64,000 nt of DNA from Myxococcales bacterium (GTDB lineage: Bacteria; Myxococcota; Myxococcia; Myxococcales; UBA5297): the NCBI GenBank assembly GCA_049841135.1, contig JASGHK010000002.1, positions 863,116 through 927,115 on the forward strand, read 5' to 3'. The notes under the pieces were generated by a model, which had not been told where the DNA came from, made no database searches, and was given only the letters and a program-made list of their open reading frames with translations. Below are positions 42,745 to 59,962 of this stretch, piece by piece. The first letter of the stretch is position 1. Each line of letters begins with the position of its first letter. The position numbers and the translations under genes are program-made.

Positions 42745-42765
42745 TCGTTCGTTCTCGGGTCGGGC

Positions 42766-43506
42766 TCAGGTCTCGCTCGCCGGGGGCGGCTGCGGGGCCG
42801 GAGGGGGGTCGGCAAGGGGGGCGAGGCTATCAGGCTTCGGGGCTTGGGGGTCAGCGGCCTCGGCGGCGGCGGCGGGCTCCCCGGTCGGAGCCAGGGCGGG
42901 CGCGCCGGCGGGCCGCCGGGCGAGGAGCGTCTGCAGCATCAGCATCGAGACGCCGACGACGATGGCGACGTCGGCCACGTTGAAGGTCGGCCAGTGCAGG
43001 CCGGGCTGGTTGCGCCAGTGCCAGTCGACGAAGTCGATGACGTAGCCGTCGATCAGCCGGTCGGTGTAGTTGCCGATCGCCCCGCCCAGCACCAGCGACA
43101 GGGCCACCGCCAAGAAGCCCTGGCCGGGCTGCAGCCGGCGGTAGAAGCTCACGATGGCCACCACCGCGATCAGGCTGACGACGTGGAAGAACGGGCGGCG
43201 CCACGACTCGTCGACCTTGGCGAACAGTCCCCAGGCCGCGCCTGGGTTCTCCACGTACTTGTGCTGCCAGTAGTTCTCGACGACGACCGACGGCGCCTTG
43301 CGGTGGTCGACCCCGCCCGGACGGGCCGGGTCGTTGTCCAGGTTCTCGAGCGCCAGGTAGGCCGAGACGCGCCCGCCCAGGGTCTTGGCCCCGGCCTGCT
43401 CGAAGGCGCTCGTCAGCCTGGCGACGGCAAGGAACTTCGTCGCCTGGTCGGCGACGAGGACCAGGCCGAAGATCGCGACCAGCAGGCCGTACTTCCAACG
43501 CATCAT
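42766..43506 (-). CDS. lspA: lipoprotein signal peptidase II
   Basis: Start MMRWKYGLLVAIFGLVLVADQATK at 43506; the track ORF extends to 43536. Conserved VENPGAAWGLF and HWPTFNVADVAIVVG blocks, plus a Pro/Ala-rich C-terminal tail. Confidence 0.88.
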   Translation of the reverse strand: MMRWKYGLLVAIFGLVLVADQATKFLAVARLTSAFEQAGAKTLGGRVSAYLALENLDNDPARPGGVDHRKAPSVVVENYWQHKYVENPGAAWGLFAKVDESWRRPFFHVVSLIAVVAIVSFYRRLQPGQGFLAVALSLVLGGAIGNYTDRLIDGYVIDFVDWHWRNQPGLHWPTFNVADVAIVVGVSMLMLQTLLARRPAGAPALAPTGEPAAAAEAADPQAPKPDSLAPLADPPPAPQPPPASET

Positions 43507-43648
43507 TCGAGTCCAGAATCCACGAGCTCCCGGCACGGACGCCGAGCCCTACCCAAACCGACGGCGCCCGGCGCGATTCCCGTCCGAGGTGCCGGCAAGC
43601 CACGTCGTCAGCTCTGGCTTGCCGACCCGCTCGGATTCGCCCACCGCC

Positions 43649-46546
43649 CTACCCCTTCAACGCCTCGGCGCACTTGGGGCACACCGGGTGGGTGGCGTCG
43701 ATGGCCTCGCTGAAGACCCAGCAGCGCGGGCACTTGGTGCCCGGGGCCCGCTCGAACTTGACGGACAGCGGCAGGCCGTCGGCCTTGGTCGCGCCCTCCG
43801 GGGCCTTGGCCGCGAGCTCGACCGCCGAGACGATGAAGAGCGCCGGCAGCTCGGCCTGCCGGGCCTTCAGCAGCCCTGCGAGCTCGGCGTCGTCCGAGGC
43901 CAGCACCACCTTCGCCTCGAGCGAGCTGCCGATGACCTTGTCCCGCCGCGGGACCTCGAGGACCTTCGAGACCTCGGAGCGCACGGCGAGCAGCTTGTCG
44001 TAGTCGGCGAGGATCCTCTCGTCGTCCGGGCGCACCTTCGCCTCGGGCAGGCCCGACAGGAACACGCTGTCGATCTTCTTGTGCGGCAGGAAGCCCCAGG
44101 CCTCGTCGCAGGTGAACGAGGTGATGGGCGAGAGCAGCTGCAGCAGCGCGACGAGGATCTCGTGGACCACGGTCTGCGCCGAGCGGCGGGCCTGCGACTT
44201 CTTCCCGTAGGTGTAGAGCCGGTCCTTGAGGATGTCGAAGTAGATCGCCGACAGCTCCACGGCGCAGAACTCGAGCGCCGCGTGGTAGACGACGTGGAAC
44301 TCGTAGTCCTCGTAGGCCTTGCGGACCTTGGCGACGAACTGGTTCAGCCGCGCCAGCGCCCAGCGGTCGATGGGCCACAGCTCCTCGACCTTCACTGTGT
44401 CCTTCTCGGGCTCGAAGTCGTGGAGGTTGCCCAGGCAGTAGCGCAGCGTGTTGCGGATCTTCCGGTAGCCCTCGGCCAGCTTGTCGAGGATCTCCTTCGA
44501 GGCGCGGATGTCGTCGCGGTAGTCGCTGGAGGCCACCCACAGCCGGGCGATCTCCGCGCCCTGCTCCTTGATGACCTTGTCGAAGGGCACGTAGTTGCCC
44601 AGCGACTTGGACATCTTCATGCCCTTGCCGTCGACCACGAACCCGTGCGTGAGCACCGCCTTGTACGGCGCGGTGTCGCGGGTGCCGACCGAGCACAGCA
44701 GCGAGGAGTGGAACCAGCCGCGGTGCTGGTCCGAGCCCTCCAAGTACAGGTCCACCGGCAGGCGGTGGTGCTTGCGCACGCCGGCGACGGCGGCCCAGGA
44801 CACGCCCGAGTCGAACCAGACGTCGAGGATGTCCTCCTCCTTGCGGAACTTCTCGCTCCCGCACTTCTTGCACTTGGTGCCGGCGGGCAGGAAGGCCTCG
44901 GGGCCGTGCGCGTACCAGGCGTCGGCGCCCTCCTTGTCGAAGGCGTCGGCGACCTTGTTCATGATCTGGGGGTCGACGATCTCCGTCTCGCAGTCCTCGC
45001 AGTAGAAGACCGGGATGGGCACGCCCCACGCGCGCTGGCGCGACACGCACCAGTCGGGGCGTGTCTCCAGCATGCCGAAGATGCGGTCGCGGCCCCACTT
45101 GGGGATCCAGCGGACCTTGTCCACTTCGGCGAGCGCCTTCTTGCGCAGGTCGTTCACCTCCATGGGGATGAACCACTGCGGGGTGGCGCGGAAGATGACC
45201 GGCTGCTTGCAGCGCCAGCAGCACGGGTAGCTGTGGCTGAGCTCGGCCTTGGGGTCGGAGAGCAGCGCCTTCAGGTCGACCAGCTTCTGGACGATCTTCG
45301 GGTTGGCGTCCCAGATGAGCTGGCCCTGGAACTCGCCGGCCTCCTCGGTGAACTTGCCGGCGCCGTCGACGGGGCTGAGCGTGTCGATGCCGTACTTGCG
45401 GCCGACCTGGTAGTCCTCGGCGCCGTGGCCCGGGGCGGTGTGGACCAGGCCGGTGCCGCTCTCGGTGGTGACGTGCTCGCCCAGGATGACCGGGCAGGTC
45501 TTGCCGTTCAGGACGTGGCGGTACTTGACGCCCTCCAGGTCCTTGCCCTGCAGGTAGCCCAGAACCTTGCCGGGGTTCTTGAGCGCGGCGACCGGGGCCT
45601 CCGGCGAGGGCTTGCTGTCCGCGGTGGTGTTGGCCAGCGCGACGTCCTTGATGGCCAGCTCGTCCGGAGCGCACTCGGACAAAAAGCTCGCGAGCAGCTC
45701 GCGCGCCACGACCAGCAGGCGGCCGTTCAGGTCGTAGACGACGTAGGTGAAGTCCGGGTGGGCGCTGATGGCGAGGTTGGCCGGCAGCGTCCAGGGCGTG
45801 GTGGTCCAGATGACCAGCTCGGCCTTCTTGCCCTTGAACGCGTCGCCCGGCAGCTCGCCCTGGACCGGGAAGGCCACGTAGATGGACGGCGACTTGTGGT
45901 CCTCGTACTCGACCTCGGCCTCGGCCAGCGCCGTGCGGTCGCGGATGCACCAGTAGACCGGCTTCTTGCCGCGCACCAGCGCGCCGCGCTCGGCGAAGCG
46001 GGCCAGCTCGCGCACGATGTTGGCCTCGTAGTCGAAGCTCATCGTCAGGTACGGCTCGTCCCAGCGGGCGAAGACGCCCAGGCGCTTGAACTCCTCGCGC
46101 TGGATGTCGACGTGGCGCTGGGCGTAGGCGCGGCAGGCCTTGCGCAGCTCGAGCTTGGACAGGCCCTTCTTGCGGCCGCCCAGCTCCTCCTCGCTCTTGA
46201 GCTCGATGGGCAGGCCGTGGCAGTCCCAGCCAGGGATGAACTCGCTGTGCTTGCCGGACATGTTTGCGTACTTGACCACGATGTCCTTGAGGACCTTGTT
46301 GAGGATGTGGCCCTGGTGGATGTGGCCGTTGGCGTACGGCGGCCCGTCGTGGAAGACGAAGAGCGGCTTGCCCTCGTTCTGGGCCATCAGCCGCTCGTAG
46401 GTCTTGCCGGCCTGCCAGCGCTCGAGCACCTGCGGCTCGCGTTGGGCCAGCGAGGCCTTCATCGGGAAGTCGGTCTTGGGGAGATTGACCGTGTCCTTGT
46501 AGTCCGTCTGAGCAGCCTTCTCGGGGGCCTTCGTTTCTTCAGCCAT
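43649..46546 (-). CDS. ileS: isoleucine--tRNA ligase
   Basis: ATG at 46544-46546 inside ORF 43649..46627. HIGH-type motif PPYANGHIHQGH, KMSKS motif KGMKMSKS and a C-terminal zinc-ribbon CPRCW...CPKC. Confidence 0.95.
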   Translation of the reverse strand: MAEETKAPEKAAQTDYKDTVNLPKTDFPMKASLAQREPQVLERWQAGKTYERLMAQNEGKPLFVFHDGPPYANGHIHQGHILNKVLKDIVVKYANMSGKHSEFIPGWDCHGLPIELKSEEELGGRKKGLSKLELRKACRAYAQRHVDIQREEFKRLGVFARWDEPYLTMSFDYEANIVRELARFAERGALVRGKKPVYWCIRDRTALAEAEVEYEDHKSPSIYVAFPVQGELPGDAFKGKKAELVIWTTTPWTLPANLAISAHPDFTYVVYDLNGRLLVVARELLASFLSECAPDELAIKDVALANTTADSKPSPEAPVAALKNPGKVLGYLQGKDLEGVKYRHVLNGKTCPVILGEHVTTESGTGLVHTAPGHGAEDYQVGRKYGIDTLSPVDGAGKFTEEAGEFQGQLIWDANPKIVQKLVDLKALLSDPKAELSHSYPCCWRCKQPVIFRATPQWFIPMEVNDLRKKALAEVDKVRWIPKWGRDRIFGMLETRPDWCVSRQRAWGVPIPVFYCEDCETEIVDPQIMNKVADAFDKEGADAWYAHGPEAFLPAGTKCKKCGSEKFRKEEDILDVWFDSGVSWAAVAGVRKHHRLPVDLYLEGSDQHRGWFHSSLLCSVGTRDTAPYKAVLTHGFVVDGKGMKMSKSLGNYVPFDKVIKEQGAEIARLWVASSDYRDDIRASKEILDKLAEGYRKIRNTLRYCLGNLHDFEPEKDTVKVEELWPIDRWALARLNQFVAKVRKAYEDYEFHVVYHAALEFCAVELSAIYFDILKDRLYTYGKKSQARRSAQTVVHEILVALLQLLSPITSFTCDEAWGFLPHKKIDSVFLSGLPEAKVRPDDERILADYDKLLAVRSEVSKVLEVPRRDKVIGSSLEAKVVLASDDAELAGLLKARQAELPALFIVSAVELAAKAPEGATKADGLPLSVKFERAPGTKCPRCWVFSEAIDATHPVCPKCAEALKG

Positions 46547-46661
46547 GACGCTCCAACTCCGCGAAAAAAGAGGGGATTGGCTACCACGGAAGGAACAGGG
46601 ATTCCATGAAGTAATTCGGGCAGTCACCCTGCGACCAGACCCTGTGCGCGGCCGAGTAGCC

Positions 46662-48011
46662 TCAGGAGCCCTTGTCGGACTTCCGGGACGGCGGCGCCGG
46701 GACGAGGCTCAGGTTGCCTTCGCGCTCGTCCGCCTGGACCACTGACAGCCCGCCGGAGTCGAGCCCGGATCCGATGCGCCCCTGGATCCAGCGGATGGCC
46801 TCCTGGGCCTCGTCCTTGATCTGGGGATCGGCCAGGAAGCCCTTGGTCAGCGGCAGCAGCGGCTCGACCGCACGGGCGGTCCCGGCTCGTGCCAGCGCCG
46901 CGACGGCTGCGCGGCGGACCTGGAGCTCGTCGCGCTCCAGCAGGCGCAGGAGGGCCGTCTCGCCGCGCGGGTCGCGCAGCTTGCCGAGCGTCTCGGCGAC
47001 CGACTTGGCCAGCCCCTCGTCCTTGGCGACCGAGAGCCGAGAGAGCGCGTCGACGAAGCGCTGGTCGCGGTGCGAGCCGATGGCCTCGACGGCCATCAGC
47101 GCCAGGCCCGGCACCTTCCGGTCGAGCGCGCCGGTGAGGATCGGCTCGCAATCGGCCCAGGCGAACTTGGCGAGCGCGAACTCGAGCGCCTTCTTGCGCG
47201 TCTGTTCGGGCGCCGCCGGGTCGGCCACGACCTTCTCGAGCGCCTCCCTGCCCTTGCGCGGCTCGAGCAGGTGCGCCACGGCGGAGAGCATGACGTTCGG
47301 GTCCGAGTCCGACGTCGCACGCTGGGCGAGCCGCTCGACGTGCCCCACCTGAGCCTGGTGGTGCTTGGCCAGCGCCAGCAGGTTGTTCTGCCGGACTCGG
47401 GCGACCGGGTCGTGCTCGGCGTTGTGGCACAGAGCGTCGGGGACCGACGTGACCCTCAAGAGCTCCGCCACCTCGAGCATCGCTCGTGCAACCTCGACGA
47501 CGTCCTTGGCCGTCACCGCCTGATCCAGCTCGACCGTGAGCTCGCCCGCCTTCACCACGCCCTTGAGGCGCACCGCGAAGTCGAGGACGCGGGCGCGCGC
47601 CTCGGCGTCCAGCGGTGCGAGCGCGACGTCGGTGGGCCCGGAGGCGTGGACGTGCCGATCGAAGGCCTCGTCGCCGGTGGGGACGTGATCGGCGGGTGGA
47701 ACGGCCGCGACGAAGGCCAGCGCGGTGGAAGGCACCAGGGAGAGCCTGGGCGAGATCTGGCCGTGGGACTTGAGCCGGAACCGGGTCTTGGGCGCGTCGT
47801 CGCCTTCGGCGTAGCCCTCGATCTCCACGGTCTGCCGGTCGACGAAGCCAACGATGCGGGGCTTCTGGAAGCGCGTGCTGACGAACTGCAACTTGAGCTG
47901 CTGGGCCGCGTCTCTCCACAGCTCGGGGTTGGACTGCAGCCGGAACCGGCTGAGGAGCCAGAGGCAGGCGGCGAGGCCGATGAGGCCCAGGTAGATCCAG
48001 ATCGTGGTCAC
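46662..48011 (-). CDS. membrane-anchored HEAT-repeat protein, paralog 1 of 6 (most diverged)
   Basis: 449 aa with a GTG start. One N-terminal TM helix (IWIYLGLIGLAACLWLL) is followed by basic residues. Shares the family blocks GDEAFDRHVHASGP.., VPDAL..N..HDP...VR.NNL and GTARAVEPLLPLTKG...AIRWIQGRIG...GGLSVV. Confidence 0.8.
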   Translation of the reverse strand: MTTIWIYLGLIGLAACLWLLSRFRLQSNPELWRDAAQQLKLQFVSTRFQKPRIVGFVDRQTVEIEGYAEGDDAPKTRFRLKSHGQISPRLSLVPSTALAFVAAVPPADHVPTGDEAFDRHVHASGPTDVALAPLDAEARARVLDFAVRLKGVVKAGELTVELDQAVTAKDVVEVARAMLEVAELLRVTSVPDALCHNAEHDPVARVRQNNLLALAKHHQAQVGHVERLAQRATSDSDPNVMLSAVAHLLEPRKGREALEKVVADPAAPEQTRKKALEFALAKFAWADCEPILTGALDRKVPGLALMAVEAIGSHRDQRFVDALSRLSVAKDEGLAKSVAETLGKLRDPRGETALLRLLERDELQVRRAAVAALARAGTARAVEPLLPLTKGFLADPQIKDEAQEAIRWIQGRIGSGLDSGGLSVVQADEREGNLSLVPAPPSRKSDKGS

Positions 48012-48089
48012 CGGCGCGCCCCCACGCCAGGCGCTACGAAGGCGCCGCCCTCACTGCGCCGGAGCGCGATGGTCGCCAGCCCCACGTCG

Positions 48090-49424
48090 TCAGCCGCCTT
48101 CCTTCTCCCGGTCGTCCGGGACCGGGTTCTCCAAGCTCAGCGCGCCGTCCGCCCCGGCGCCGTCCACCACCGAGAGCCGGCCTGCGTCGGCGTCGCCCAA
48201 TCTTGCCTGGATGCGGCGCACGGCGTCTCGGGCCACCGAGCTTACGGCCCCGTCCTTGGCCGATTGCAGCAACGGCTCGACGGCGCGGACCGTGCCGCAC
48301 TCGCCGAAAGCCTTCGCGGCGGCCGCCTGGACCTCGCGAGACTCGTGGCGCAGCAGCGTGAAGAGCGCGTCCTCGGCACCGGCCCCGCCAACGGCGCCAA
48401 GAGCTTCCGCCAGCGCCTCTCCCAGCGGCAAAGGCGCGACTTGGGAAGCGAGGGAGGCCAACGCCTCCACCTTCGACTCGTCCTTGCTCTTTCCCACCGC
48501 GCGCACTGCCGCGCAGCGAAGCTCCAGCGACTCGGCTGACAGCGCCCAGGCGACGAGTGGCGCAGCGCTCCCGTACGAGAAACCAGAGACGAGCCTCTCG
48601 AGCGCCATCGCCCGAAGCTCCTCGGGCAGCGAGCGGTTCTCGACCAGCTTCACCAGGACCTCCCGAGCCTCGGGATCCCCCGGAAGCCGCTCTGCTGCGA
48701 AGAGCCGCATCGCGGGGTCCAGGTCACGCAGCGTCGCCTGGTATGCCCACAGCGCCTCTCGGGTCTCCGGGTGGAACTGCGACAACGCGTCGAGGCACTT
48801 GTGCCTCACGTCCGCGCTCAGGTCCTTGGTCGCGTTCTCGAGCAGCGCCTTCGGGAGGGAAGGGACTGCGAGGTGCCCCGCCAACTCGAGCATCCCCCGC
48901 ACTGCTGTGACGAAGTCCTCGGGATCCGTGTGGCGCTCGAGAGCCAGCTCCAGGCCGCTGCCCGCGACCTTGCCCCCTTCGCCGACGAAACTGACGAGGT
49001 CCGCTCTCGTCTGTGCGCCCAGCGCGGCGAGCGCGGCATCGAGCGGGCCGCGAACGCGCACTTGCTTGTCGAAATCCTCCGCGCCCGTCACCACATCCTC
49101 TTGCTTGCCCTGAGGCCAGAGCCCGCGCCGCTCGATCTGCAGGGTCTCGGCGATCCGGCCACCGCTCTGGACGATCACGCGGATGAGGTCCGGACTCGTC
49201 TGCTCTTCGATCTCGACCGCGAAGCCGTCGACCGTTCCTTCCAGCCGGTGGCCTCCCTGAGGCCGGTCGAGCTCGCGCAGCCCCAGCTCTCGCGCAGGCT
49301 CGCTCCATCGCTTCACGGCGGCCCGCTTCGCCCGCGCGTCGCTTCGGACGACAGCCCACAGAAGCGCCGTCAGCCCGGCGACCGAGGCGCCCATCGCGAG
49401 GATGACCAGGGATGCAGTTCCCAC
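48090..49424 (-). CDS. membrane-anchored HEAT-repeat protein, paralog 2 of 6
   Basis: 444 aa. TM helix (LVILAMGASVAGLTALLWAVV) followed by RSDARAKR. Family blocks GAEDFDKQVRVRGP and SLPKALLENATKDLSADVR. Tail GTVRAVEPLL...ARDAVRRIQARLGDADAGRLSVVD. Starts 5 nt after the stop of paralog 3. Confidence 0.82.
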   Translation of the reverse strand: MGTASLVILAMGASVAGLTALLWAVVRSDARAKRAAVKRWSEPARELGLRELDRPQGGHRLEGTVDGFAVEIEEQTSPDLIRVIVQSGGRIAETLQIERRGLWPQGKQEDVVTGAEDFDKQVRVRGPLDAALAALGAQTRADLVSFVGEGGKVAGSGLELALERHTDPEDFVTAVRGMLELAGHLAVPSLPKALLENATKDLSADVRHKCLDALSQFHPETREALWAYQATLRDLDPAMRLFAAERLPGDPEAREVLVKLVENRSLPEELRAMALERLVSGFSYGSAAPLVAWALSAESLELRCAAVRAVGKSKDESKVEALASLASQVAPLPLGEALAEALGAVGGAGAEDALFTLLRHESREVQAAAAKAFGECGTVRAVEPLLQSAKDGAVSSVARDAVRRIQARLGDADAGRLSVVDGAGADGALSLENPVPDDREKEGG

Positions 49425-49429
49425 GCGCC

Positions 49430-50806
49430 CTAGTCTCCCCGGTCCTTCGTCCCGTTAGGAAGCGGTGGCACGCTCAACCCACCGCCGACCCGCGCGTCCA
49501 CGACCGAGAGCCGGCCGGCGTCAGCGTCGCCCAACCGGGCTTGGATGGCGCGCACGGCCTCTCTCGCAGCATCCCCGACGGCTCCGGCCAGGACGCCCTG
49601 GGTCAACGGCAGGAGCCACTCCACTGCGCGCACGGTCCCGACCTTCGCGAGCGCGGCCGCGGCGGCCACCTTCACCTTCGCCGACTCGTGCGCCAACAAG
49701 CCGAGCAGCGCCTTCTCGGCCTCGCTCTCTTCAAAGACGCCGAGCGCGTTCGCCAGCGCCTCTCCCACCTCGGCCGGGAGCCTCATCGGCGCCGCACACT
49801 GGGCCGCGAGCCGTTCCAGCTGCGAGGCGTCCCGAGCCATGGCCACGGCGCGGATGGCGGCGCACCTCAGCAGGGGCGCGGGCGTGAGCGGATCGGAGGC
49901 GAGCGCCCGCGCCACCGTCACGGCGACCGCCTCGTAGGGATGCCCTTCCACCAGTCGGTCGAGCGCCTGCGCACGCACCCCGTCGGTCTGGACCAGGTCC
50001 TCGACGACCTCCGAGAGCGCCACGCGCGCTGCCTCCTCGCCCACCAGCGCCTGCGCCGCCCAGATCCGGGTCTCCGCGACGGAGTCGTCCAGCGCGGCGT
50101 GCAGCGCCTCTCGCGCCTCGGCCGAGCCGGGGTACCGGGTCACCAGCACCTCGAGGTTCCGCCTGCGCACCCTCGAGTTCGGGTCCTTCGAAGCGTTCTC
50201 CAGCAGCGCAACCGGGACCGAGGAGACCTCCAGCGACTGGGCCAGCGCGACGGCGTACTGGGTGAGCTCCCGGATCCGCTGGGGTTCCCCGGGCCGGTCG
50301 AGCGAATTGAAGAAGAGGTTTCCCCGCTCGACCGTCCCGCCCGCGTCGACCCACGTACGCAGCAGCGTGCGCGCACGGACACCCAGGGCGGCGAGCACCT
50401 GGTCCTCGGGCCCCTCGACGTGCACGAGCTTGTCGAAGGCGGCGTCGTCCAGCTGCACGTCCTCGCCCTCGAACCGCTTCACGATCCCCGCGAGCGGAGC
50501 CTCGCGCCGCAAGTCCAGCGTTGCGCTGATTCGCCCATTCCCCGCCAGCCGCACGCGCAGGAAGCTGCCCTGCTTGCTGCGGTAGACCTCGTCCACGATG
50601 ACGCCGAAACCCTGGTCCTCGCCGACGAGGTGCGGCGCTCCCTTGGTGTCGACGCCGAACGTCATCCCCGTCTGGTCGGCCAGGCGTCTCCAGCGCCTCT
50701 CCGCGTCCCGCTTCGCGTCGCGGCGAACGGAGACGATCAGCGCCGTCAGCATCCCCACGCCGGCGCACAAGCCAGCGACGGCGACGCCGATCGCCCATAG
50801 GTCCAT
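49430..50806 (-). CDS. membrane-anchored HEAT-repeat protein, paralog 3 of 6
   Basis: ATG at 50804-50806 inside ORF 49430..51301 gives MDLWAIGVAVAGLCAGVGMLTALIV-SVRRDAKRD. The start shares one base with the paralog 4 stop (TGATG). Family blocks DDAAFDKLVHVEGPEDQVLAAL and SVPVALLENASKDPNSRVRRRNL. Tail ..AREAVRAIQARLGDADAGRLSVVD. Confidence 0.82.
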   Translation of the reverse strand: MDLWAIGVAVAGLCAGVGMLTALIVSVRRDAKRDAERRWRRLADQTGMTFGVDTKGAPHLVGEDQGFGVIVDEVYRSKQGSFLRVRLAGNGRISATLDLRREAPLAGIVKRFEGEDVQLDDAAFDKLVHVEGPEDQVLAALGVRARTLLRTWVDAGGTVERGNLFFNSLDRPGEPQRIRELTQYAVALAQSLEVSSVPVALLENASKDPNSRVRRRNLEVLVTRYPGSAEAREALHAALDDSVAETRIWAAQALVGEEAARVALSEVVEDLVQTDGVRAQALDRLVEGHPYEAVAVTVARALASDPLTPAPLLRCAAIRAVAMARDASQLERLAAQCAAPMRLPAEVGEALANALGVFEESEAEKALLGLLAHESAKVKVAAAAALAKVGTVRAVEWLLPLTQGVLAGAVGDAAREAVRAIQARLGDADAGRLSVVDARVGGGLSVPPLPNGTKDRGD

Positions 50807-52179
50807 CAGCCGCGTTCCTTGGCCTTGTCGCCCGTGCCCAGGCTCAGCCCGCCCTCCCCGGCCTTCTCGTCCACCACCGACAGCCCGCCCGCCTCGACCT
50901 CGCCGAGCCTCGACTGGATGCCGCGGATCGCCCCTCGCGCGGCCTCCTTGAGCGAGCCGTCTGCGAACAGGCCTTGAGTCAGCGGCAGCAACCGCTCGAC
51001 CGAGCGCACCGTCCCGAGCCTCGCCAGGGCCTTGGCCGCGGCGGTCTTCACCTCGACGGCGTCGGAGGCGAGCAGGTCCAGCAGCATCGGCTCGGCGCCC
51101 GGCCCGGCGGCCTTCCCCAGCGCCTCGGCGAGTGCGGCCCCGAGCGCCGGCTCGGTGGTCCTGGCGAGGTCCGGCCTCGCGAGCAGCGGCGCCGCGTCGC
51201 TCGCGTTTCCGGCCGCCTTCACCGCCGCGATGCGCATGGCTTCGCTCGGCAGGTCGAGCGCCTTGGCGACGTGGCCCGAGACCGTGGAGTACGGGTAGCA
51301 CTCCACCAGGAGCTGCAGGACCTTCCCGCGCTGCTCGTCGGTGAGCGCGCGCGCCGAGTCGAACAAGCTCTCCAGCACCGACCGGACCTTGTCGCCCTTG
51401 CGCAAGACGCTGGCCGCGTAGATCCGGTTATCGAGCGAGCGATCGCCCAGCGCGTCCTGAAGCACCTCGCGCGTCTGGGGCAGGTTGCGGTCGCGCTTCA
51501 CCAGCATCTCGAGGTTCCGCCGGCGCACGCCCGGATTGGGATCGCTGCGCGCGTTGCGCACCAGCGCCTCGACGACGCCCGGCACCTTGAGCGCGTCGGC
51601 GGCATCGACCATGGTCCGGACGAGCGAGACCATCAGCGCGGGGTCGCTCACCAGCCCGGTCACCTCGACGCCGACCTTCCCGTCCTTGACCTCGCCGCGC
51701 CTGGCGGCGAGCTTGAGCACCGCCATGCGCGCCCGCTCGTTCAGCGCCGCCACCACGGCATCCTCGGGGCCCTGGACGTTGACCGCGGCGTCGAAGGTCG
51801 GGTCGTCGAGCTGGATGTCCTCGCCGGCGAAGACCTTCTTGAAGCCTTCCCAGGCGGACTCCGGCTTGAGCTCCATCCGCTCGTGAAAGGCGCCGCGGCC
51901 GTCGAGGGTGAAGCGGGTATAGGCCTGCGAGTTCTTCCCGGAGTTGCGGCTGAAGGTGTCGATGAGGATGCGGTGGCCGCCGATGACGCCCGCGATCTCC
52001 CGGCCGCTGGACATGCCGAGAAACGTCTTCGCGTGCACCTCGAGCCCGAGCTGCGCGGCGGCGACGCGCCACGCGGCCTCGACCCTGCGCTGCTTCAGGT
52101 GCGAGACGAGGAACACCAGGCCCGCGGCGCCGACGCTGATGGCGATGGGGAGGAAGGGTCCGATGCCGTGGTCCATCAT
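50806..52179 (-). CDS. membrane-anchored HEAT-repeat protein, paralog 4 of 6
   Basis: 457 aa. TM helix (FLPIAISVGAAGLVFLV) followed by SHLKQRR. Family blocks DDPTFDAAVNVQGPEDAVVAAL and NARSDPNPGVRRRNL. Tail GTVRSVERLLPLTQG...ARGAIRGIQSRLGEVEAGGLSVVD. The start overlaps the paralog 5 stop (ATGA, 52176-52179). Confidence 0.82.
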   Translation of the reverse strand: MMDHGIGPFLPIAISVGAAGLVFLVSHLKQRRVEAAWRVAAAQLGLEVHAKTFLGMSSGREIAGVIGGHRILIDTFSRNSGKNSQAYTRFTLDGRGAFHERMELKPESAWEGFKKVFAGEDIQLDDPTFDAAVNVQGPEDAVVAALNERARMAVLKLAARRGEVKDGKVGVEVTGLVSDPALMVSLVRTMVDAADALKVPGVVEALVRNARSDPNPGVRRRNLEMLVKRDRNLPQTREVLQDALGDRSLDNRIYAASVLRKGDKVRSVLESLFDSARALTDEQRGKVLQLLVECYPYSTVSGHVAKALDLPSEAMRIAAVKAAGNASDAAPLLARPDLARTTEPALGAALAEALGKAAGPGAEPMLLDLLASDAVEVKTAAAKALARLGTVRSVERLLPLTQGLFADGSLKEAARGAIRGIQSRLGEVEAGGLSVVDEKAGEGGLSLGTGDKAKERG

Positions 52180-53516
52180 CCGCGCTCCTGCTCCTTCTGG
52201 TTCGCCACTGCGCCGACGCTGAGGCCGCCCTCTCCCGCGCGCTCGTCGACCATCGAGAGCCGCCCGCCGTCGGCGTCGCCGAGCCTGGACTGGATGGCGC
52301 GGATCGCGTCGCGTGCGGCTTCCTTGAGCGCGGCGTTGCCCAGTACGCCTTGCGAGAGCGGGAGGAGCGGCTCGACGCTGCGGACGGTTCCGGCCTGGGC
52401 CAGCCCGACCGCGGCCTCGCGCTTGACCGCGTCGGAGCCGCTCTGGAGCAGCGCGATCAGGCTGGACTCCGCCTCGCTTCCGCCGATGGCGGCCAGGGCC
52501 TTGGCGAGCGACCGGCCCAGGGCCTCGTCGCGGGTCGCCACGAGGTTGTGCAGGGACGCCAGCTGCGAGGCGTCCCTGCCTCGACCGGCGGCCTCCACCG
52601 CCACCCGGCGCAGCGGCTCGAGCTCCTGGTACAGGGCGCGTCGGACGAGCGGGGCGATCGCGTCATAGGGGAAGAGCTGCGAGAGGCGCTCCAGGGCCGC
52701 GGCGCGCACGGCCACGGCGGCCTCCCGATCGTCCACCAGCGCTTCGAGCGTCCTTTGCACCGCCGCGCTGGCGTCCGCTCGCTGCGCTGCCAACAGCCGC
52801 ACCTCGGGGTCACGGTCGGAGAGCGCCGCCTCCAGCGCTTGCCCGGTTTCGGGAGCGGCCGCGTGGCTTGCGAGCAGCGCGGCCAGGTTCCGGAGGCGGA
52901 CCTGCGAATTGGGATCGGTCCGCACATTGCGCAGCAGCGCCACAGGGACGGAGTCGACGACCATCGACTTGGCGACCTTCGCCAGCAGCCGGGCTTCCTT
53001 CTGAAGGGGCGCCCCGCCAATCCCTGCCCCTTCGTAGTGGAAGACCAGGTTCCCCGACTCCACGACCCCGCCCGAGGCGACGAAGTCGCGCACCAACGCA
53101 CGCGCCTCGACCCCCAGGGTCGCCAGGACCACGTCCTCGGGGCCGCGAATCTTCACCGCCGCGTCGAACTCGGCATCGCCGACCTGGACGTCGTTCTTGC
53201 CCAGCGCCTTGCGCAGCCCTTGCCACGAGGACTCGACTCCGAGCGCGATGTCCGGAGGAACGCGGCCCTTGCCGTCGAGCATCAGGCGGCTACCGGTCCG
53301 GCGGTTCTCTCCAGAGCCTTTCTCGAAGATCTCCAGGCGCAGCTCAAAGCCTTCGATCTCGCCTTCCCAGGCGCGCTGCGCGACGTCATCGGTGCCAAAG
53401 GCCCCCGAGCTGGCCGCGCCGAAGTTGTCCGAGCGGTCCTTGAAGTGGCGGATGGCCATCGGAATGCCGAACGCCGCCCCAACGACCAGAATGAGGAACC
53501 AGACGAACCCTTCCAT
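52176..53516 (-). CDS. membrane-anchored HEAT-repeat protein, paralog 5 of 6
   Basis: 446 aa. TM helix (FVWFLILVVGAAFGIPMAI) followed by RHFKDR. Family blocks GDAEFDAAVKIRGPEDVVLATL and SVPVALLRNVRTDPNSQVRLRNL. Tail GTVRSVEPLLPLSQG...ARDAIRAIQSRLGDADGGRLSMVD. Starts 3 nt after the stop of paralog 6. Confidence 0.82.
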   Translation of the reverse strand: MEGFVWFLILVVGAAFGIPMAIRHFKDRSDNFGAASSGAFGTDDVAQRAWEGEIEGFELRLEIFEKGSGENRRTGSRLMLDGKGRVPPDIALGVESSWQGLRKALGKNDVQVGDAEFDAAVKIRGPEDVVLATLGVEARALVRDFVASGGVVESGNLVFHYEGAGIGGAPLQKEARLLAKVAKSMVVDSVPVALLRNVRTDPNSQVRLRNLAALLASHAAAPETGQALEAALSDRDPEVRLLAAQRADASAAVQRTLEALVDDREAAVAVRAAALERLSQLFPYDAIAPLVRRALYQELEPLRRVAVEAAGRGRDASQLASLHNLVATRDEALGRSLAKALAAIGGSEAESSLIALLQSGSDAVKREAAVGLAQAGTVRSVEPLLPLSQGVLGNAALKEAARDAIRAIQSRLGDADGGRLSMVDERAGEGGLSVGAVANQKEQERG

Positions 53517-53519
53517 GGC

Positions 53520-54890
53520 TCAGCCCTTCTCCCCGGCACGCGTGACCTGCCCGACGCTGAGAGCGCCCTCCTCCGCCACGGCCTGCACCACCGAGAGACG
53601 TCCTCCGCCAGCGTCGCCCAGCCTCGCCTGGATGGCACGGACGGCGTCGCGGGCCGCATCCTTGAGCGCTCCGTCGGCCAGGACACCTTGGGTGAGCGGC
53701 AGCAGCGGCTCGACGGCGCGGACGGTGCCGACCTTGCCAAGGCCGGCAGCGGCCTCCCGCCGCACAGCGGCCGACTCGTGGCCCAGGAGCTTGATGAGGC
53801 CGGGCTCGGCGAGCTCGCCCGCCGTGGCAAGCGCCTTCGCCAGAGCGCTGGCGACGCCCTCGTCGTGCAGCGGGGCGAGCTTCTCCATGGCCACGAGCCG
53901 GTCGACGTCTCTCCCCGCGCCCGCCGCGGCGATCGCCGCGCGCTTGAGCTCGAGCGCATCGCTCGCGAACGCGCGGCCGACGTGCGCCGCGACCTCCGGA
54001 TAGGGCCAGGCCCCGGCGAGCCGCTCGAGCGCGGATGCTCGGATCTCGGCAGGCACGCGCTCGTCGTCCAAGAGCGCCTCGAGCACCTGCTGGGCCTCCT
54101 TCTGAGCCGGCGAGAGCCGAGCGGCGAGCAGGCGGATAGCCGGGTCCGCGTCGACGAGTGCGGCCTGCAGGGCCTTGGCCGACTCGGGACTGCCGGAGTG
54201 CATCTGAAGCAGCGCCGTCAGGTTGCGCCGCCGCAGCTTCGGGTCTGCTTCCTTGGTCGCGTTCTCGAGCAGCGCCGCAGGGACCGAGGCGATCGCGAGG
54301 CTCCTGGCGACCGCGAGCATCGACTGGACCGCTCCTTCGATCTCCTTTCGGTCCCTCAGCTCGCCGTTCCACTTCAAAAGCAGCTCGCCTTCGCGGACGA
54401 CGCCGCCGCGGGCCAGGAAGGCCAGCAGGTCTTTGCGCGCCTGCGGCTTGAGCACCGCGAGCGCCACGTCCTCGGGCCCCTGGACCAGGACCGCCTTGTC
54501 GAACTCGGCCTCCCCGAGCTCGACGTCCTGCGCGCCGGCGACCTTGCGAACCGCATCCAGAGCCGTCTCGGACTTGAGGCTGAGCTCGGCGGGGACCATT
54601 CCGCGCGTGCCGAGGACGGCCCGGGTGTACTTCCGGGGCGTGCTGTGCTCCCTCAGCCCGGGGTCCTCGTTCTCGGTCCACGTCTCGACCAGCACGTCGA
54701 AGCCGTCGACCTTCCCGTGCAGCGTCCAGCCCGCCCCTTCGCTGTAGTCCAGCCCGAGCGCCCGGCCTGCGGACCACCAGGCCTCCTCGGCCTCCTGTGA
54801 GGACTTCCCGGGCCGGTCTTGCAGCCAGCGCGCGAAGAGCGACACTCCGACCGCAGCGACGCCGCACAGAATCCAGGTCACGGCTTCCAT
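53520..54890 (-). CDS. membrane-anchored HEAT-repeat protein, paralog 6 of 6
   Basis: ATG at 54888-54890 inside ORF 53520..55271 gives MEAVTWILCGVAAVGVSLFARW. An AGGAGGGGG Shine-Dalgarno lies in the 23-nt gap after the Hsp70 stop. Family blocks GEAEFDKAVLVQGPEDVALAVL and SVPAALLENATKEADPKLRRRNL. Tail GTVRAVEPLLPLTQG...ARDAVRAIQARLGDAGGGRLSVVQ. Confidence 0.82.
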   Translation of the reverse strand: MEAVTWILCGVAAVGVSLFARWLQDRPGKSSQEAEEAWWSAGRALGLDYSEGAGWTLHGKVDGFDVLVETWTENEDPGLREHSTPRKYTRAVLGTRGMVPAELSLKSETALDAVRKVAGAQDVELGEAEFDKAVLVQGPEDVALAVLKPQARKDLLAFLARGGVVREGELLLKWNGELRDRKEIEGAVQSMLAVARSLAIASVPAALLENATKEADPKLRRRNLTALLQMHSGSPESAKALQAALVDADPAIRLLAARLSPAQKEAQQVLEALLDDERVPAEIRASALERLAGAWPYPEVAAHVGRAFASDALELKRAAIAAAGAGRDVDRLVAMEKLAPLHDEGVASALAKALATAGELAEPGLIKLLGHESAAVRREAAAGLGKVGTVRAVEPLLPLTQGVLADGALKDAARDAVRAIQARLGDAGGGRLSVVQAVAEEGALSVGQVTRAGEKG

Positions 54891-54913
54891 GACGGTCCCC
54901 CTCCTGACTCGAA

Positions 54914-56602
54914 TCAGAGCAACCGGACGACGGGCTCGGCCTTCATCAGGTGCTTCTTGGTGCGTAGGTCGAAGACGGTGGCGCACAGCCAGCGCTCGGC
55001 GTTGACCCCGAAGGCCACCTCCAGGCGCGGGCGCGAGTCCTGTGGCGAGTGCGGCGGGTCGAGGTAGCCCAGCGCCGGGTTGGCCTCGTTGAGCTTGACC
55101 ACCAGCGGGCCCTCGCCCTGCCCGTCCTTGCCGCCCATCTTGTGCAGCTGGCCGGTGGCGTCCCAGCCGAAGGTGCGCCCCTCGCCGCCCTCGCCGATCT
55201 CGCAGATGACGAGCTTGAAGACCTTCTCCGGCTCGCCCAGCGCGCAGGTGGGGACGAGCTGGCGCTTCCACAGGTCGAGCTGGGTCGGGAAGCGGGTGCC
55301 CTTGGGCACGATGACGGTGTGCTCCGGCTTCTTGGACTTGAGGTCGTAGGTCACGAGCGCGTAGTCGTGGACGATGAAGTCGACCGGCTCGGTGCGCCCG
55401 GCGGCGAAGACTGCGGCCCCGTAGGCCACCGCCTCGAACGGCTGCCAGGCGCGGACCTTGGCGCGCCCGAAGCGCGTCTCGAACATCTTGTAGACCTCGG
55501 GGAGCAGCGTCGAGCCGCCGACCATCAGCACGTCCTCGACGTCCGACTCCGAGAGCCCCTTCTCCCGGGCCTGCTCCAGGACCTCGGCGAGGCAGTGCTC
55601 GAGCGCGCCGTAGACGCCGCGCTGGCGCAGGAGATCGATGAGGTCCTGCTGGGTCAGCTCCACCGAGCGCGCGTCGCCGCGCAACCGGGCCGAGAGGCTG
55701 CGCAGGTGCTCGGGCGGGGCCAGCTCGAAGACCGCCTGCTTCTTGAAGAAGATGGCCTCCTTGGCCCGGCAGGCGTCGGCGAGCATCAGCCGCCGCCAGA
55801 GCAGGACCTCCTCGGAGGCGTCGTCGTCGAGCGGGAACTCGAGGCGCCGGCAGAGCTCAGCCAGGAGCCACTGGTCGACGAGGTTGCCGCCGATGTCGCG
55901 GCCGGCCTTGGCGACGACCTCGCTGCTGCCCTTCTGCACGCCCGCCGGGTCGAGCCGGATGAGGGCGACGTGCATCGTCCCGCCGCCGAAGTCGACGACC
56001 AGGACCTTGCGCTGCCGGGTGAGCCCGAGGCCGTAGCCGAGCGCCGCGGCGACCGGCTCGTCCAAGAAGCGCAGCTTCTTGATGCCCAGCGCCTTGCCGG
56101 CCGCGACCAGCTCCGCGCGGTACGTCTCGAAGGCCTCGACGGGCGAGGTGATGGCGAGGTCGCGGATCCGCTCGCCGGTGACGGCCTTGGTCTCGGCCAT
56201 CAGCTCGCGCAGGAACATCCGGCAGACCTCGCGGGCCGAGAAGCTGGTCTTGCCGATGCGCGCGATGGGCATCAGGGGCGCGGTGCCGAGCACGCGCTTG
56301 AAGGTGGAGACGAACTGGGGCCGCTGCTGGACGGCGTTCATCTCCAGCGCCGGGCGGCCGATGTGGGCGAGCTTGCCCCAGAAGAAGTTGCGGGCGAGCG
56401 GCCCCGACTGCCCGAGCTTCGCCCACACCCCCGGCTCCTCGAGGACGTGGACCGCCGAGGGGACGGCGCGGGCGGCATCGACGGCGTCTGCGTGGCCGGG
56501 CTTGCGGCTGAGGTTGGGGAGCTCGAGCAGCGCCGGGCGGTCCGCCTGCGGTTCCCAGCGCGCGAGCAAGGTGTTGGTGGTGCCGAGATCGAGAGCCCAC
56601 AT
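54914..56602 (-). CDS. atypical Hsp70/DnaK-superfamily ATPase lacking the helical lid
   Basis: ATG at 56600-56602 inside ORF 54914..57337 (562 aa). Actin-fold ATPase motifs are intact: ALDLGTTNT (phosphate 1), VLVVDFGGGTMHVAL (phosphate 2), VLMVGGSTLLPEV (adenosine) and LDEPVAAALGYG. About 170 aa of beta-rich C-terminus follows, with no alpha-helical lid and no EEVD. Confidence 0.88.
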   Translation of the reverse strand: MWALDLGTTNTLLARWEPQADRPALLELPNLSRKPGHADAVDAARAVPSAVHVLEEPGVWAKLGQSGPLARNFFWGKLAHIGRPALEMNAVQQRPQFVSTFKRVLGTAPLMPIARIGKTSFSAREVCRMFLRELMAETKAVTGERIRDLAITSPVEAFETYRAELVAAGKALGIKKLRFLDEPVAAALGYGLGLTRQRKVLVVDFGGGTMHVALIRLDPAGVQKGSSEVVAKAGRDIGGNLVDQWLLAELCRRLEFPLDDDASEEVLLWRRLMLADACRAKEAIFFKKQAVFELAPPEHLRSLSARLRGDARSVELTQQDLIDLLRQRGVYGALEHCLAEVLEQAREKGLSESDVEDVLMVGGSTLLPEVYKMFETRFGRAKVRAWQPFEAVAYGAAVFAAGRTEPVDFIVHDYALVTYDLKSKKPEHTVIVPKGTRFPTQLDLWKRQLVPTCALGEPEKVFKLVICEIGEGGEGRTFGWDATGQLHKMGGKDGQGEGPLVVKLNEANPALGYLDPPHSPQDSRPRLEVAFGVNAERWLCATVFDLRTKKHLMKAEPVVRLL

Positions 56603-58381: not shown

Positions 58382-59962
58382 TCAGCTCTTGTCGAACTCC
58401 AGCACCAGCGCGTGGACCTTGCCGTCCTCGCCCTCCTCGGCGTCGAGCTCGACCAAATCCTTGGCGGCGCGGACCTTGGCTCCGGTGCTCAGGCTGGTGC
58501 CCAGCGCCGCCTGGAGCTTGGCGCCGTAGCTGTCGCCCGCGGCCGCGGTGATCCGCTCGTTGAGCTTCTTGAAGTCGAGCGGTTTGGGCGAGATGACCAC
58601 CGCCACCGAGTCGCGGGTGCCCTTGTCGTCGGCCTCCAGGCTCTGCTTGCGCGGAAAGACGCGCACGCCGGTGGTGCCGCAGTAAGGCGAGTGCTTGGGC
58701 GTGTACGGGAACAGCACGTAGCTCGTCCCGTCGGTCTCCTGGCCGAAGAGGTAGGTGTAGACGGGCTTGCTGTTCGAGAATTCGACCTTGAAGCGCGTGC
58801 CGACCTTGATGGGCTTCACGGTCCGGAAGACGTTCCCCTCCACCGGCTTGAGCGCGATGCGCCGCTTGGTGGCGTTGTCGATCAGCCCGAACTGGATGTG
58901 CTGCTTCTGGTCCGCCTCGGCTTTGCCCATCGGGTACAGGCCGTAGGCCTCCTTCACGAAGTGGTCGAAGTCCTTGTACTTGACGAAGGCGACGCCGCCG
59001 TCGCCCCAGTCGTCGCCCCAGCTGTTCATCAGCTCGAAGGCGCCGCCCTCCAGCGAGTCGTCGTAGCCGATGACCGCCATGGCGTGCCCGCCCCAGTCGC
59101 CGCGGAACTCGTAGTCGTCCTCGGTGGGGCGCCAGACGCGCCTGCCCTGCATCTCGGTCTCGAAGGTCCCGCCCACCTTCATGCCGATGACCACCGGCGC
59201 GCCCTGCGCCAGGTGCTGCTTCACCGCCGTGGCGTTGTTCCGGTAGTCGTCCGAATCCACGGTCAGGCGCGTGAACCCGACGATCCGGTAGTCGGCGGCG
59301 CGCTCCTTCTCGTCGGGGCTGGGCCTTCGCGTGCACGACTTCTGGTCGTAGGCGAACTCGGAGAGCGGCAGGTCGCCGGTCTTCTCCATCGTCTCCAGCG
59401 CGCGCACCAGGTAGCTGCCCTGGCAGCTGCTCTTGCCGATCTGGTTGTAGATGAACGAGGGGCTGAAGGCGAGGTCGGCCCCGGTCTGCCGCTTGTGCAG
59501 GATGGAGCGCGCCGCATAGGAGGTGGCCCAGCCGACGCAGCTGCCCTGCCGGCCCTGGCTCTTGCGCGGCGGAGCGTACTGGCGAAGCGAGACGCGCGAG
59601 ACGCTGTCCGCCTCGGCCAAGGGTTCGTGCACCAGCGCGGTGTCGTAGACCTTCGGGTCCAGCACCGCGCCCGTTCCGAGCTGGCCCTCCTCGGCGACCT
59701 TGGCCGGCGTGGCCTCCTCGGAGGACGCGGTCTGGTCGGGCCCGCTCGAGCTCGGCCCGGAGCAGTAGTAGAAGGCCCCGACGATCAGCAGCAGCACGAC
59801 GGTGATCTTCGGGTGCCGGAAGGCGAAGAAGAGCAACCCGAGAATGGCCGCGCCGCCCGCTCCACTTCCGCCGCCGCTTCCGCCACCACCTCCACCGCCT
59901 CGTGGGGAATCGTCGTCCCCGCCGCTGTCGCGCGGGTCGTCGTCGGTCATGCGGATGGGCAT
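58382..59962 (-). CDS. membrane-anchored papain-like (C1) cysteine peptidase with C-terminal beta-rich domain (DUF4384-like)
   Basis: 526 aa. Acidic then poly-Gly N-terminus, followed by a TM helix (AAILGLLFFAF...VVLLLIVGAFYY). Catalytic blocks are QGRQGSCVGWATSYA (Cys), GGHAMAVIGYDD (His) and LMNSWGDDWGDGG (Asn/Trp). The DUF4384 call for the last about 170 aa rests on memory of that family. Confidence 0.78.
   Translation of the reverse strand: MPIRMTDDDPRDSGGDDDSPRGGGGGGGSGGGSGAGGAAILGLLFFAFRHPKITVVLLLIVGAFYYCSGPSSSGPDQTASSEEATPAKVAEEGQLGTGAVLDPKVYDTALVHEPLAEADSVSRVSLRQYAPPRKSQGRQGSCVGWATSYAARSILHKRQTGADLAFSPSFIYNQIGKSSCQGSYLVRALETMEKTGDLPLSEFAYDQKSCTRRPSPDEKERAADYRIVGFTRLTVDSDDYRNNATAVKQHLAQGAPVVIGMKVGGTFETEMQGRRVWRPTEDDYEFRGDWGGHAMAVIGYDDSLEGGAFELMNSWGDDWGDGGVAFVKYKDFDHFVKEAYGLYPMGKAEADQKQHIQFGLIDNATKRRIALKPVEGNVFRTVKPIKVGTRFKVEFSNSKPVYTYLFGQETDGTSYVLFPYTPKHSPYCGTTGVRVFPRKQSLEADDKGTRDSVAVVISPKPLDFKKLNERITAAAGDSYGAKLQAALGTSLSTGAKVRAAKDLVELDAEEGEDGKVHALVLEFDKS

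Follow-up and report, generated by a model that had tools for sequence, protein, structure and literature searches.

Organization of the locus

The stretch of DNA analysed here (the window; 64,000 nucleotides of a Myxococcales genome, contig JASGHK010000002.1, positions 863,116 to 927,115, with a G+C content of ≈ 70%) carries on its minus strand, at 46662-56602, seven tightly packed genes, namely a gene for a lid-less Hsp70-family protein in the first position and behind it six genes for paralogous HEAT-repeat proteins, P6 to P1 in that order. All six paralogs share a conserved C-terminal tail with short G-x-L-S motifs, and it is this tail that may serve as the docking element for the co-encoded Hsp70.

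The Hsp70 gene (54914-56602, minus strand, as is the whole array) encodes 562 residues beginning with MWALDLGTTN, and it ends 21 nt upstream of the start of P6. The product of P6 (53520-54890, 456 aa) comprises an N-terminal membrane helix, a middle α/β domain, HEAT repeats (HEAT_2, 1.5e-11), and the tail. It is followed by P5 (52176-53516, 446 aa), P4 (50806-52179, 457 aa), whose start overlaps the stop of P5 by 4 nt, P3 (49430-50806, 458 aa, start MDLWAIGV), P2 (48090-49424, 444 aa), and P1 (46662-48011, 449 aa), the most divergent paralog, with Pfam matches to HEAT_2 (1.4e-11) and HEAT_PBS (3.7e-07). The spacers from the Hsp70 gene through P1 measure 21, 3, −4, −1, 5, and 78 nt, so that the arrangement fits one operon with translational coupling.

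Structure of the HEAT paralogs

The P6 model, obtained with AlphaFold2 (AF2) from a 28-sequence family alignment, reached an overall pLDDT (predicted local distance difference test) of 88, and consists of an N-terminal helix (residues 2-23), an α/β middle domain (≈ 46-175), a HEAT solenoid (181-423), and an unstructured end (428-456). The last HEAT repeat, formed by helices 390-400 and 407-423, is modelled with confidence (mean pLDDT of 87-97 over 10-residue blocks, above 90 for helix 407-423); at 428-450 and 452-456 the pLDDT lies below 50 and no secondary structure was assigned. Because the confident solenoid stops at ≈ 423 and residues 428-456 are unstructured, the last ≈ 32 residues are predicted to be a disordered, exposed peptide with two GxLS(V/L) motifs. 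An earlier reading of the same DNA, made from the letters without database searches (the sequence-only reading), had taken the whole conserved end for an extended peptide rather than a fold. This description holds for the last ≈ 32 residues, but the first ≈ 37 (GTVRAVEPLL...IQARLG) are the last HEAT repeat, folded with confidence in the model, and show G-x-x-R-A-V-E-P-L-L, by which PBS-type HEAT-like repeats are usually recognized. Packing of the tail onto the solenoid as a capping helix, named there as the finding that would speak against an exposed peptide, is seen in the AF2 model for this folded half only, the remainder being disordered.

In P6 the folded half corresponds to residues 388-425 (GTVRAVEPLLPL...AARDAVRAIQARLG, starting with GTVRAVEPLL; 53616-53729, minus strand) and the disordered tail proper to residues 425-456 (GDAGGGRLSVVQAVAEEGALSVGQVTRAGEKG; 53523-53618), with the first motif copy, GRLSV(V), at 53589-53603 and the second, GALSV(G), at 53553-53567. 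The disordered tails of the other paralogs, all on the minus strand, lie at 52179-52280 in P5 (GRLSM 52251-52265, GGLSV 52215-52229), 50809-50904 in P4 (GGLSV 50875-50889, GGLSL 50839-50853), 49433-49531 in P3 (GRLSV 49502-49516, GGLSV 49469-49483), 48093-48197 in P2 (GRLSV 48168-48182, GALSL 48132-48146), and 46665-46772 in P1 (GGLSV 46740-46754, GNLSL 46704-46718).

Pfam recognizes only HEAT_2 and HEAT_PBS, both in the C-terminal half of the paralogs. With HEAT_2 scores of 38-45 bits (P6, P5, P1) against a gathering cut-off of 27.7 bits, and with alphaRep and HEAT folds among the structural matches, the proteins belong to the HEAT_2 family. An identity as phycobilin lyase or NblB was discarded, the NCBIfam scores being 21-25 bits against cut-offs of 300-330. 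The fold search with P6 returned generic HEAT-like repeats only and gave no identification of the middle domain. This α/β domain (≈ 46-175 of P6, ≈ 54366-54755, minus strand, with equivalents in all paralogs) has neither a Pfam match nor an informative structural match, and it holds a second conservation peak (0.5) with the pattern G-D-x-x-F-D-x-x-V-x-V-x-G-P-E-D-x-x-L-A-x-L. All six paralogs, and 70 of 87 family proteins, begin with a hydrophobic helix, and in 66 of these 70 more Lys/Arg residues follow the helix than precede it. By the positive-inside rule the helix is predicted to sit N-out/C-in in the inner membrane, which would place the bulk of the protein, including the tail, in the cytoplasm. 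A sorting signal of the MYXO-CTERM type was rejected, since the tail lacks a hydrophobic helix.

Conservation of the C-terminal tail

In a MAFFT alignment of the six paralogs the mean pairwise identity is 0.63 over the tail columns, which run from GTVR through the second LS motif, as against 0.33 over the other columns. The tail ranks second among 425 alignment segments of equal length, the best non-overlapping segment reaching 0.42, and in the family profile it is again the best-conserved segment of the protein. The folded half (P6 388-425) has an identity of 0.67; behind the second motif there follow 9-17 weakly conserved residues (0.29), which mostly end in K/E/R-G. Where amino acids are identical, the same codon is used in 54% of cases in the tail and in 51% elsewhere, with ≈ 47% expected from codon usage. 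Because synonymous sites are as scrambled in the tail as in the rest of the genes, the conservation is selection on the protein and not on the DNA, and recent gene conversion or a nucleotide signal is excluded.

The peptide strings quoted in the sequence-only reading all occur in the six paralogs, and its two central statements, a tail shared by all six otherwise diverged proteins and purifying selection on that tail, are borne out by the identities and the codon statistics, respectively. Its wording was too strong in places. "Near-invariant" and "almost superimposable" overstate an identity of ≈ 63%, and the proteins do not end at LSVG, given the 9-17 further residues. The range 53520-53690 assigned to the tail omits its first ≈ 13 codons, the P6 peptide actually quoted spanning 53523-53729. 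The term "bipartite" is accurate for these six proteins, each of which has two motif copies, but not for the family, in which three copies are the norm.

The tail family across genomes

A search with full-length P6 yielded only 27 relatives, mostly from Myxococcales, all of which bear the tail except for one generic HEAT protein. A profile of the tail alone gave mainly short fragments from a word-indexed database; more informative was exhaustive scoring of this profile against 1.84 billion representative proteins (E ≤ 1e-3), which produced 1311 hits, each a representative cluster at 50% identity. Among the 150 best hits the match lies near the C-terminus, with full-length hits of ≈ 380-520 aa, and 60 retrieved family sequences share one architecture of N-terminal membrane anchor, middle domain, HEAT repeats, and tail. 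The degenerate DNA pattern for A-x-x-A-x-x-x-I-Q-x-R-L-G-x4-G-x-(L/V)-S detects five of the six window paralogs and nothing in shuffled sequence. Applied to contigs from one genome per species, it picked out genuine family members from Myxococcota (Bradymonadia and Polyangiaceae among them), Acidobacteriota, Planctomycetota, and Spirochaetota. Arrays of 2-7 paralogs are common.

The conserved module consists of the last HEAT helix, A-x-R-x-A-h-x-x-I-Q-x-R-L-G, and an acidic, Gly/Ala-rich tail with G-x-(L/V)-S-(L/V/I)-(A/V), as in the example tail peptide DAGGGRLSVVQAVAEEGALSVG. From 297 unique tails the repeat unit was derived as (D/A)-A-E-A-G-(R/A/Q)-(L 84%/V 16%)-(S 91%)-(L 62%/V 23%/I 8%)-(A 55%/V 13%), with acidic residues behind it and the x position of G-x-L-S being occupied by Arg (29%), Ala (25%), Gln (19%), or Gly (12%). 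The core L-S-(L/V)-(A/V) is only partly hydrophobic, and its flanks are acidic save for the Arg that precedes it in 29% of copies. A tail holds 2-5 copies, most commonly three (176 of 293 tails), at a spacing of 9-12 residues, with a median of 12 residues after the last copy; the two-copy tails of the window represent the low end of this range. In metagenome-assembled genomes of Spirochaetota (L023, L024, L039, L048, L057, L067) the first motif reads G-W-L-S/T, followed by G-A-L-S copies; the Hsp70 of this variant is much more divergent (40% identity in L067), and several copies per genome occur on different contigs. No model in Pfam, NCBIfam, or PADLOC covers the tail or the Hsp70/HEAT pair, and open-access full text offered no description of a bacterial pair of this kind or of the tail motif GQLSLA, an absence that counts as weak evidence given the open-access scope.

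The lid-less Hsp70

The Hsp70 of the window matches PF00012 with 6e-39 (134 bits against a cut-off of 20.6 bits) over profile positions 67-416 of 599. In its AF2 model (pLDDT 86) an actin-fold nucleotide-binding domain (1-400) is connected by the hydrophobic linker DFIVHDYA to an all-β domain (413-560), a β-sandwich, and no helix follows residue 400; the C-terminus is a β-strand (...EPVVRLL) and bears no tail. Foldseek aligned ≈ 575-600 columns, the β domain included, to DnaK, BiP, and Hsc70 with E ≈ 1e-30, and lid-truncated constructs as well as Ssz1 were among the matches. Model and structural alignments thus agree with the sequence-only reading that the lid is absent. Because it has no lid and scores far below the equivalog cut-offs (110-112 bits versus 620-822 in NCBIfam), the protein belongs to the Hsp70 family without being a canonical DnaK or HscA orthologue.

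At E < 1e-30 the search found 1533 proteins of this clade or related to it; the best 120 are 55-92% identical and measure 534-586 aa at 99-100% query coverage, apart from one fragment of 489 aa. DLGTTN, DEP, and D-x-GGGT are invariant in the clade, and since these are the phosphate-binding and catalytic motifs, the window protein is likely an active ATPase. Within the clade the β domain, at 0.65 overall and 0.70-0.72 when one loop is left out, is better conserved than the nucleotide-binding domain at 0.57, an unusual order for an Hsp70 that points to one specific ligand of the β domain. Invariant residues of this domain (413-562) include W445, R447, V450-P451, C453, F462-K463-L464, N505, and R537-W538-L539. 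Comparison with PADLOC-DB v2 returned only weak or generic matches (PDC-M61B at 2e-4 for the Hsp70, HEAT-ARM_XIII at 1e-8 for P1), which assign neither protein to a defence system.

Linkage of the Hsp70 and HEAT genes

Six loci were fetched by exact-protein lookup of tail-bearing proteins, and all six contain a member of the Hsp70 clade: four as intact adjacent pairs in unrelated neighbourhoods, one as a pair fragmented by frameshifts of the assembly, and one as a deletion remnant. In this remnant (L009 8001-8342, P0067, 113 aa) the first ≈ 45 residues of an Hsp70-clade protein (MTGWALDLGTTNS...) are joined in frame to a four-repeat GQLSL tail, and the open reading frame has the appearance of a scar left when a deletion took out the greater part of an Hsp70-HEAT operon.

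The reverse approach started from the Hsp70. Metagenome contigs were scanned with the clade alignment and the best 80 loci retained, a locus being evaluable if a family gene was found or at least 1.5 kb was available on both sides; 15 loci were too short. An adjacent family gene is present in 56 of the 65 evaluable loci (86%), immediately downstream on the same strand in 43, divergently oriented in eight, and upstream in five, nearly all downstream pairs being separated by about −18 to +190 nt. The co-encoding of Hsp70 and tail proteins that had been noted in the window is therefore the rule at these loci. Every complete family C-terminus there bears the tail (61/61), which, together with the 27 close homologues and the 1311 clusters, confirms its conservation in homologs elsewhere. 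No other gene family occurs in more than five of the 80 loci, because of which the conserved module is taken to have two components. A J-domain protein or GrpE, as expected for a canonical Hsp70 system, was found neither in the 80 loci nor in the neighbourhood Pfam tables.

Some genomes keep additional family copies away from the Hsp70 locus (L026 and L042 as compared with L015/L027, in one metagenome-assembled genome). Some clade members without a HEAT neighbour adjoin a 497-aa protein with a hydrophobic N-terminus and no Pfam match (L068/L069 11776-13269) or a 1712-aa protein (L070 4786-9924), neither of which bears the tail; the clade may have alternative partners. Subtypes of Hsp70 and tail co-vary (GRLSVV with VVKLNE.NPALG, PGQLSLA with VVPLNE.SPTLG), an observation not used as evidence, as shared ancestry alone suffices to account for it.

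Neighbourhood and evolution of the array

Directly downstream of P1 and on the same strand lie ileS, lspA, and lgt (41377-46627, minus strand), and the junction of HEAT array, IleS, and LspA recurs in a related Myxococcales metagenome-assembled genome (L001). A C1 peptidase of the papain family (58382-59962, minus strand), which is fused to DUF4384 and has a Gly-rich N-terminus and a hydrophobic segment, is encoded upstream of the Hsp70 operon; its position is kept in the closely related L001 but not at more distant loci.

Five of the six window paralogs can each be matched with one collinear gene of L001 (8733-18179), and the tail is kept in each lineage; the paralog array is old. Between the two genomes IleS is 88%, the C1 peptidase 86%, and Hsp70 91% identical, but identity falls to 50-72% in the collinear paralog pairs (47-72% in the bodies, 68-77% in the tails). 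Nei-Gojobori dS values are 0.5-0.85 in the array versus 0.22-0.30 in the flanks, with a body dN/dS of 0.33-0.62; the HEAT array evolves much faster than its surroundings. For P3 of the window and for M1 and M6 of L001 no one-to-one pairing is clear, and this suggests birth and death of genes within the array.

Proposed role of the tail

The sequence-only reading had named the co-encoded Hsp70 as the obvious candidate for a common partner of the tails, which might be docking or client peptides. We put the probability that the tail docks to this lid-less Hsp70 at about one half, with the β domain as the most likely site. The proposal is made because the two-gene linkage is strong and specific, because the tail and the β domain are each the best-conserved part of their own protein, and because the motif is exposed, β-prone, and alternating hydrophobic; furthermore, the topology is compatible, with tail and Hsp70 both predicted on the cytoplasmic side, and Ssz1-Zuo1 provides a close precedent. 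Each paralog would be an adaptor anchored in the inner membrane, with a cytoplasmic HEAT body that diverges from copy to copy, and the last helix with its multivalent GxLS(L/V) tail would form the common handle by which all paralogs are held on the co-transcribed Hsp70. The β-prone L-S-L/V triplets could lie in the groove where the β domain takes up peptides, extend its open β-sandwich by further strands, or do both; for a three-copy tail one may speculate on one groove ligand and two edge strands. Loss of the lid is known to speed both the on- and the off-rates of peptides (PMC7083937). Several motif copies would provide avidity and so offset the fast exchange expected here. As an outcome, one conserved ATPase would serve a panel of fast-diverging, membrane-tethered HEAT adaptors.

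Several observations weigh against this proposal. A family gene is missing from nine of the 65 evaluable Hsp70-first loci, two of the three clade members inspected on long contigs have no family neighbour, and ≈ 12 of the ≈ 21 evaluable 8-kb stretches found through the tail are without an Hsp70 gene. The canonical motif of E. coli DnaK is a Leu-rich hydrophobic core of 4-5 residues for which basic flanks are preferred and acidic ones disfavoured. The Asp/Glu flanks of the tail motifs would thus call for a groove of altered specificity, and the near-invariant Ser (91%) and the Gly find no explanation in a simple hydrophobic-groove model. Finally, HEAT/ARM solenoids bind peptides themselves, and the receptor could be the HEAT domain.

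This last point leads to a reading in which the tail is bound by the HEAT/middle domain, either in cis, as an auto-inhibitory element, or by a neighbouring paralog in head-to-tail membrane assemblies, with the Hsp70 acting on the resulting complex or elsewhere. Extended peptides are common ligands of solenoids, importin-α and β-catenin appear in the weaker range of the fold matches, many genes for tail-bearing proteins have no Hsp70 gene nearby, and the frequency of arrays would suit such assemblies. We nevertheless consider it unlikely: AF2 left the tail undocked on the solenoid (pLDDT < 50), single-copy loci keep the tail too, and the combination of diverging bodies (47-72% between collinear orthologues) and a constant tail fits a conserved external partner better. 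Quite unlikely, in our judgement, is docking on the other domain of the Hsp70, where the tail, in the manner of a linker mimic or a co-chaperone, would enter the hydrophobic IA/IIA cleft of the nucleotide-binding domain, normally the seat of the interdomain linker, tune the ATPase, and replace the missing J-protein. Disordered C-terminal tails that dock in this cleft are common in the actin/Hsp70 superfamily (ParR-ParM, FtsZ-FtsA), which counts in favour of such a mode, as do the resemblance of the first motif and its acidic follower (RLSVVD/E) to the DnaK linker VLLLD and the lack of a J-domain protein or GrpE linked to the module. Zuo1, moreover, contacts the nucleotide-binding domain of Ssz1 at the linker-binding site (PMC7083937). 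Against it, the Hsp70 of the window retains its own invariant linker DFIVHDYA, the β domain and not the nucleotide-binding domain is the more conserved one in the clade, and after the later motif copies Ala or Pro usually takes the place of the acidic residue.

The motifs might be regulatory sites, phosphorylated at the Ser by Ser/Thr kinases or read by a protease as a degradation signal, an improbable reading despite the 91% conservation of the Ser and the Arg two residues before it in 29% of copies. Ser/Thr kinase genes, one of them with TPR repeats, adjoin family genes at L003 11278-13380, L017 3401-6292, and L049 3301-5544, but these are only three of ≈ 100 loci fetched, and kinase genes are very numerous in Myxococcota. 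The papain-like peptidase upstream of the operon in the window and in L001 is kept only in that one closely related genome, the 80 Hsp70-first loci show no recurrent kinase or protease family, and, unlike typical C-terminal degrons, the motifs do not stand at the extreme C-terminus, a median of 12 variable residues following them. The consensus of the β-sliding-clamp binding motif is QL[SD]LF, and GQLSLA of the Acidobacteriota-type tails does resemble QLSLF or the QLSLPL of Hda. Such an assignment is effectively refuted by the position-specific frequencies: Gln accounts for only 19% of copies and for none of the 12 in the window, and the last position lacks the aromatic or large hydrophobic residue and is Ala in 55%. 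In addition, the proteins are membrane-anchored and no replication gene is linked. An equally negligible chance is left for an effect at the nucleotide level, be it recent gene conversion or a DNA/RNA signal for translational coupling. The copies are indeed tandem and closely spaced, with a nucleotide identity of 0.60-0.77 in the tail versus 0.46-0.54 otherwise; however, the last 9-17 codons, nearest to the next start, are the least conserved, single-copy genes from several phyla have the same conserved peptide, and the synonymous codon identity given above (0.54 versus 0.51, with 0.47 expected) led to the rejection of both variants.

Should the tail bind the Hsp70 as proposed, the pair would exemplify a multivalent linear motif that connects an Hsp70 with a membrane and with many adaptors, and it would give the first functional handle on a large family annotated merely as "HEAT repeat protein" or "hypothetical". 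The module is simple and abundant, it does without lid, J-protein, and exchange factor, and its candidate interaction motif is sharply defined. One may go further, in a tentative and rather doubtful extension of the docking proposal, and picture a widespread, self-contained two-component machine (Myxococcota, Acidobacteriota, Planctomycetota, Spirochaetota), in which the lid-less Hsp70 would need neither a J-protein nor an exchange factor, since the repeated GxLS tail of its partners would complete its β domain, as in the ribosome-associated complex, and also bring it to the membrane. The HEAT and middle domains, which evolve fast and are amplified in tandem, would then constitute a receptor panel for different targets such as envelope, signalling, or conflict-related ligands.

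Comparison with known systems

Specialised Hsp70s that read one partner by a short motif are rare and mechanistically informative, with HscA-IscU and Ssz1-Zuo1 as the main examples. The closest analogue of the pair described here is the fungal ribosome-associated complex Ssz1-Zuo1, which has the same combination of a complete β domain without lid and one dedicated partner, known in the present case from genes and models. Ssz1 is lid-less, its β domain is completed by extra β-strands from the N-terminus of Zuo1, and its groove holds the LP motif of Zuo1 (SLPLPTL) as a pseudo-substrate (PMC7083937). The differences concern both components. Zuo1 is a ribosome-bound J-protein that uses its N-terminus, whereas the partner here is a membrane-anchored HEAT protein without J-domain that carries 2-5 repeats at its C-terminus, and up to seven such partners share one Hsp70. 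Furthermore, Ssz1 does not hydrolyse ATP, whereas the Hsp70 of the window keeps DLGTTN, DEP, and D-x-GGGT.

HscA, a dedicated Hsp70 paralogue that recognises a single motif (LPPVK) in IscU and is encoded beside this partner, resembles the pair in the adjacency of the two genes and in the short conserved linear motif. HscA models are also the best NCBIfam matches to the window Hsp70 (112 bits against the 620-bit cut-off), but HscA has a lid, a J-protein (HscB), and a place in the isc operon. Another likeness, on the side of the solenoid, is found in Fes1/HspBP1, armadillo-repeat nucleotide-exchange factors in which a disordered hydrophobic segment is thought to enter the substrate site, and which thus combine an α-solenoid co-factor of Hsp70 with a flexible substrate mimic. 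They differ in being eukaryotic and soluble, with an N-terminal and unrepeated mimic, and no sequence relationship to the HEAT paralogs was found. HEAT-like proteins of the PBS-lyase type (HEAT_2/HEAT_PBS; alphaRep, CpcE, YibA, deoxyhypusine hydroxylase) share the solenoid, including G-T-V-R-A-V-E-P-L-L of the same repeat type, and lack the N-terminal anchor, the middle domain with G-D-x-x-F-D...V-x-G-P-E-D, and the IQxRLG element with the GxLS tail. The C-terminal EEVD motif of Hsp70s, which is bound by TPR co-chaperones, likewise ties an Hsp70 to α-solenoid partners through a disordered acidic C-terminal tail, yet with the polarity reversed, as here the solenoid protein owns the tail. Within this range of systems, the genes of the window appear to encode a specialised Hsp70 with a dedicated partner, which it would recognise through a linear motif.

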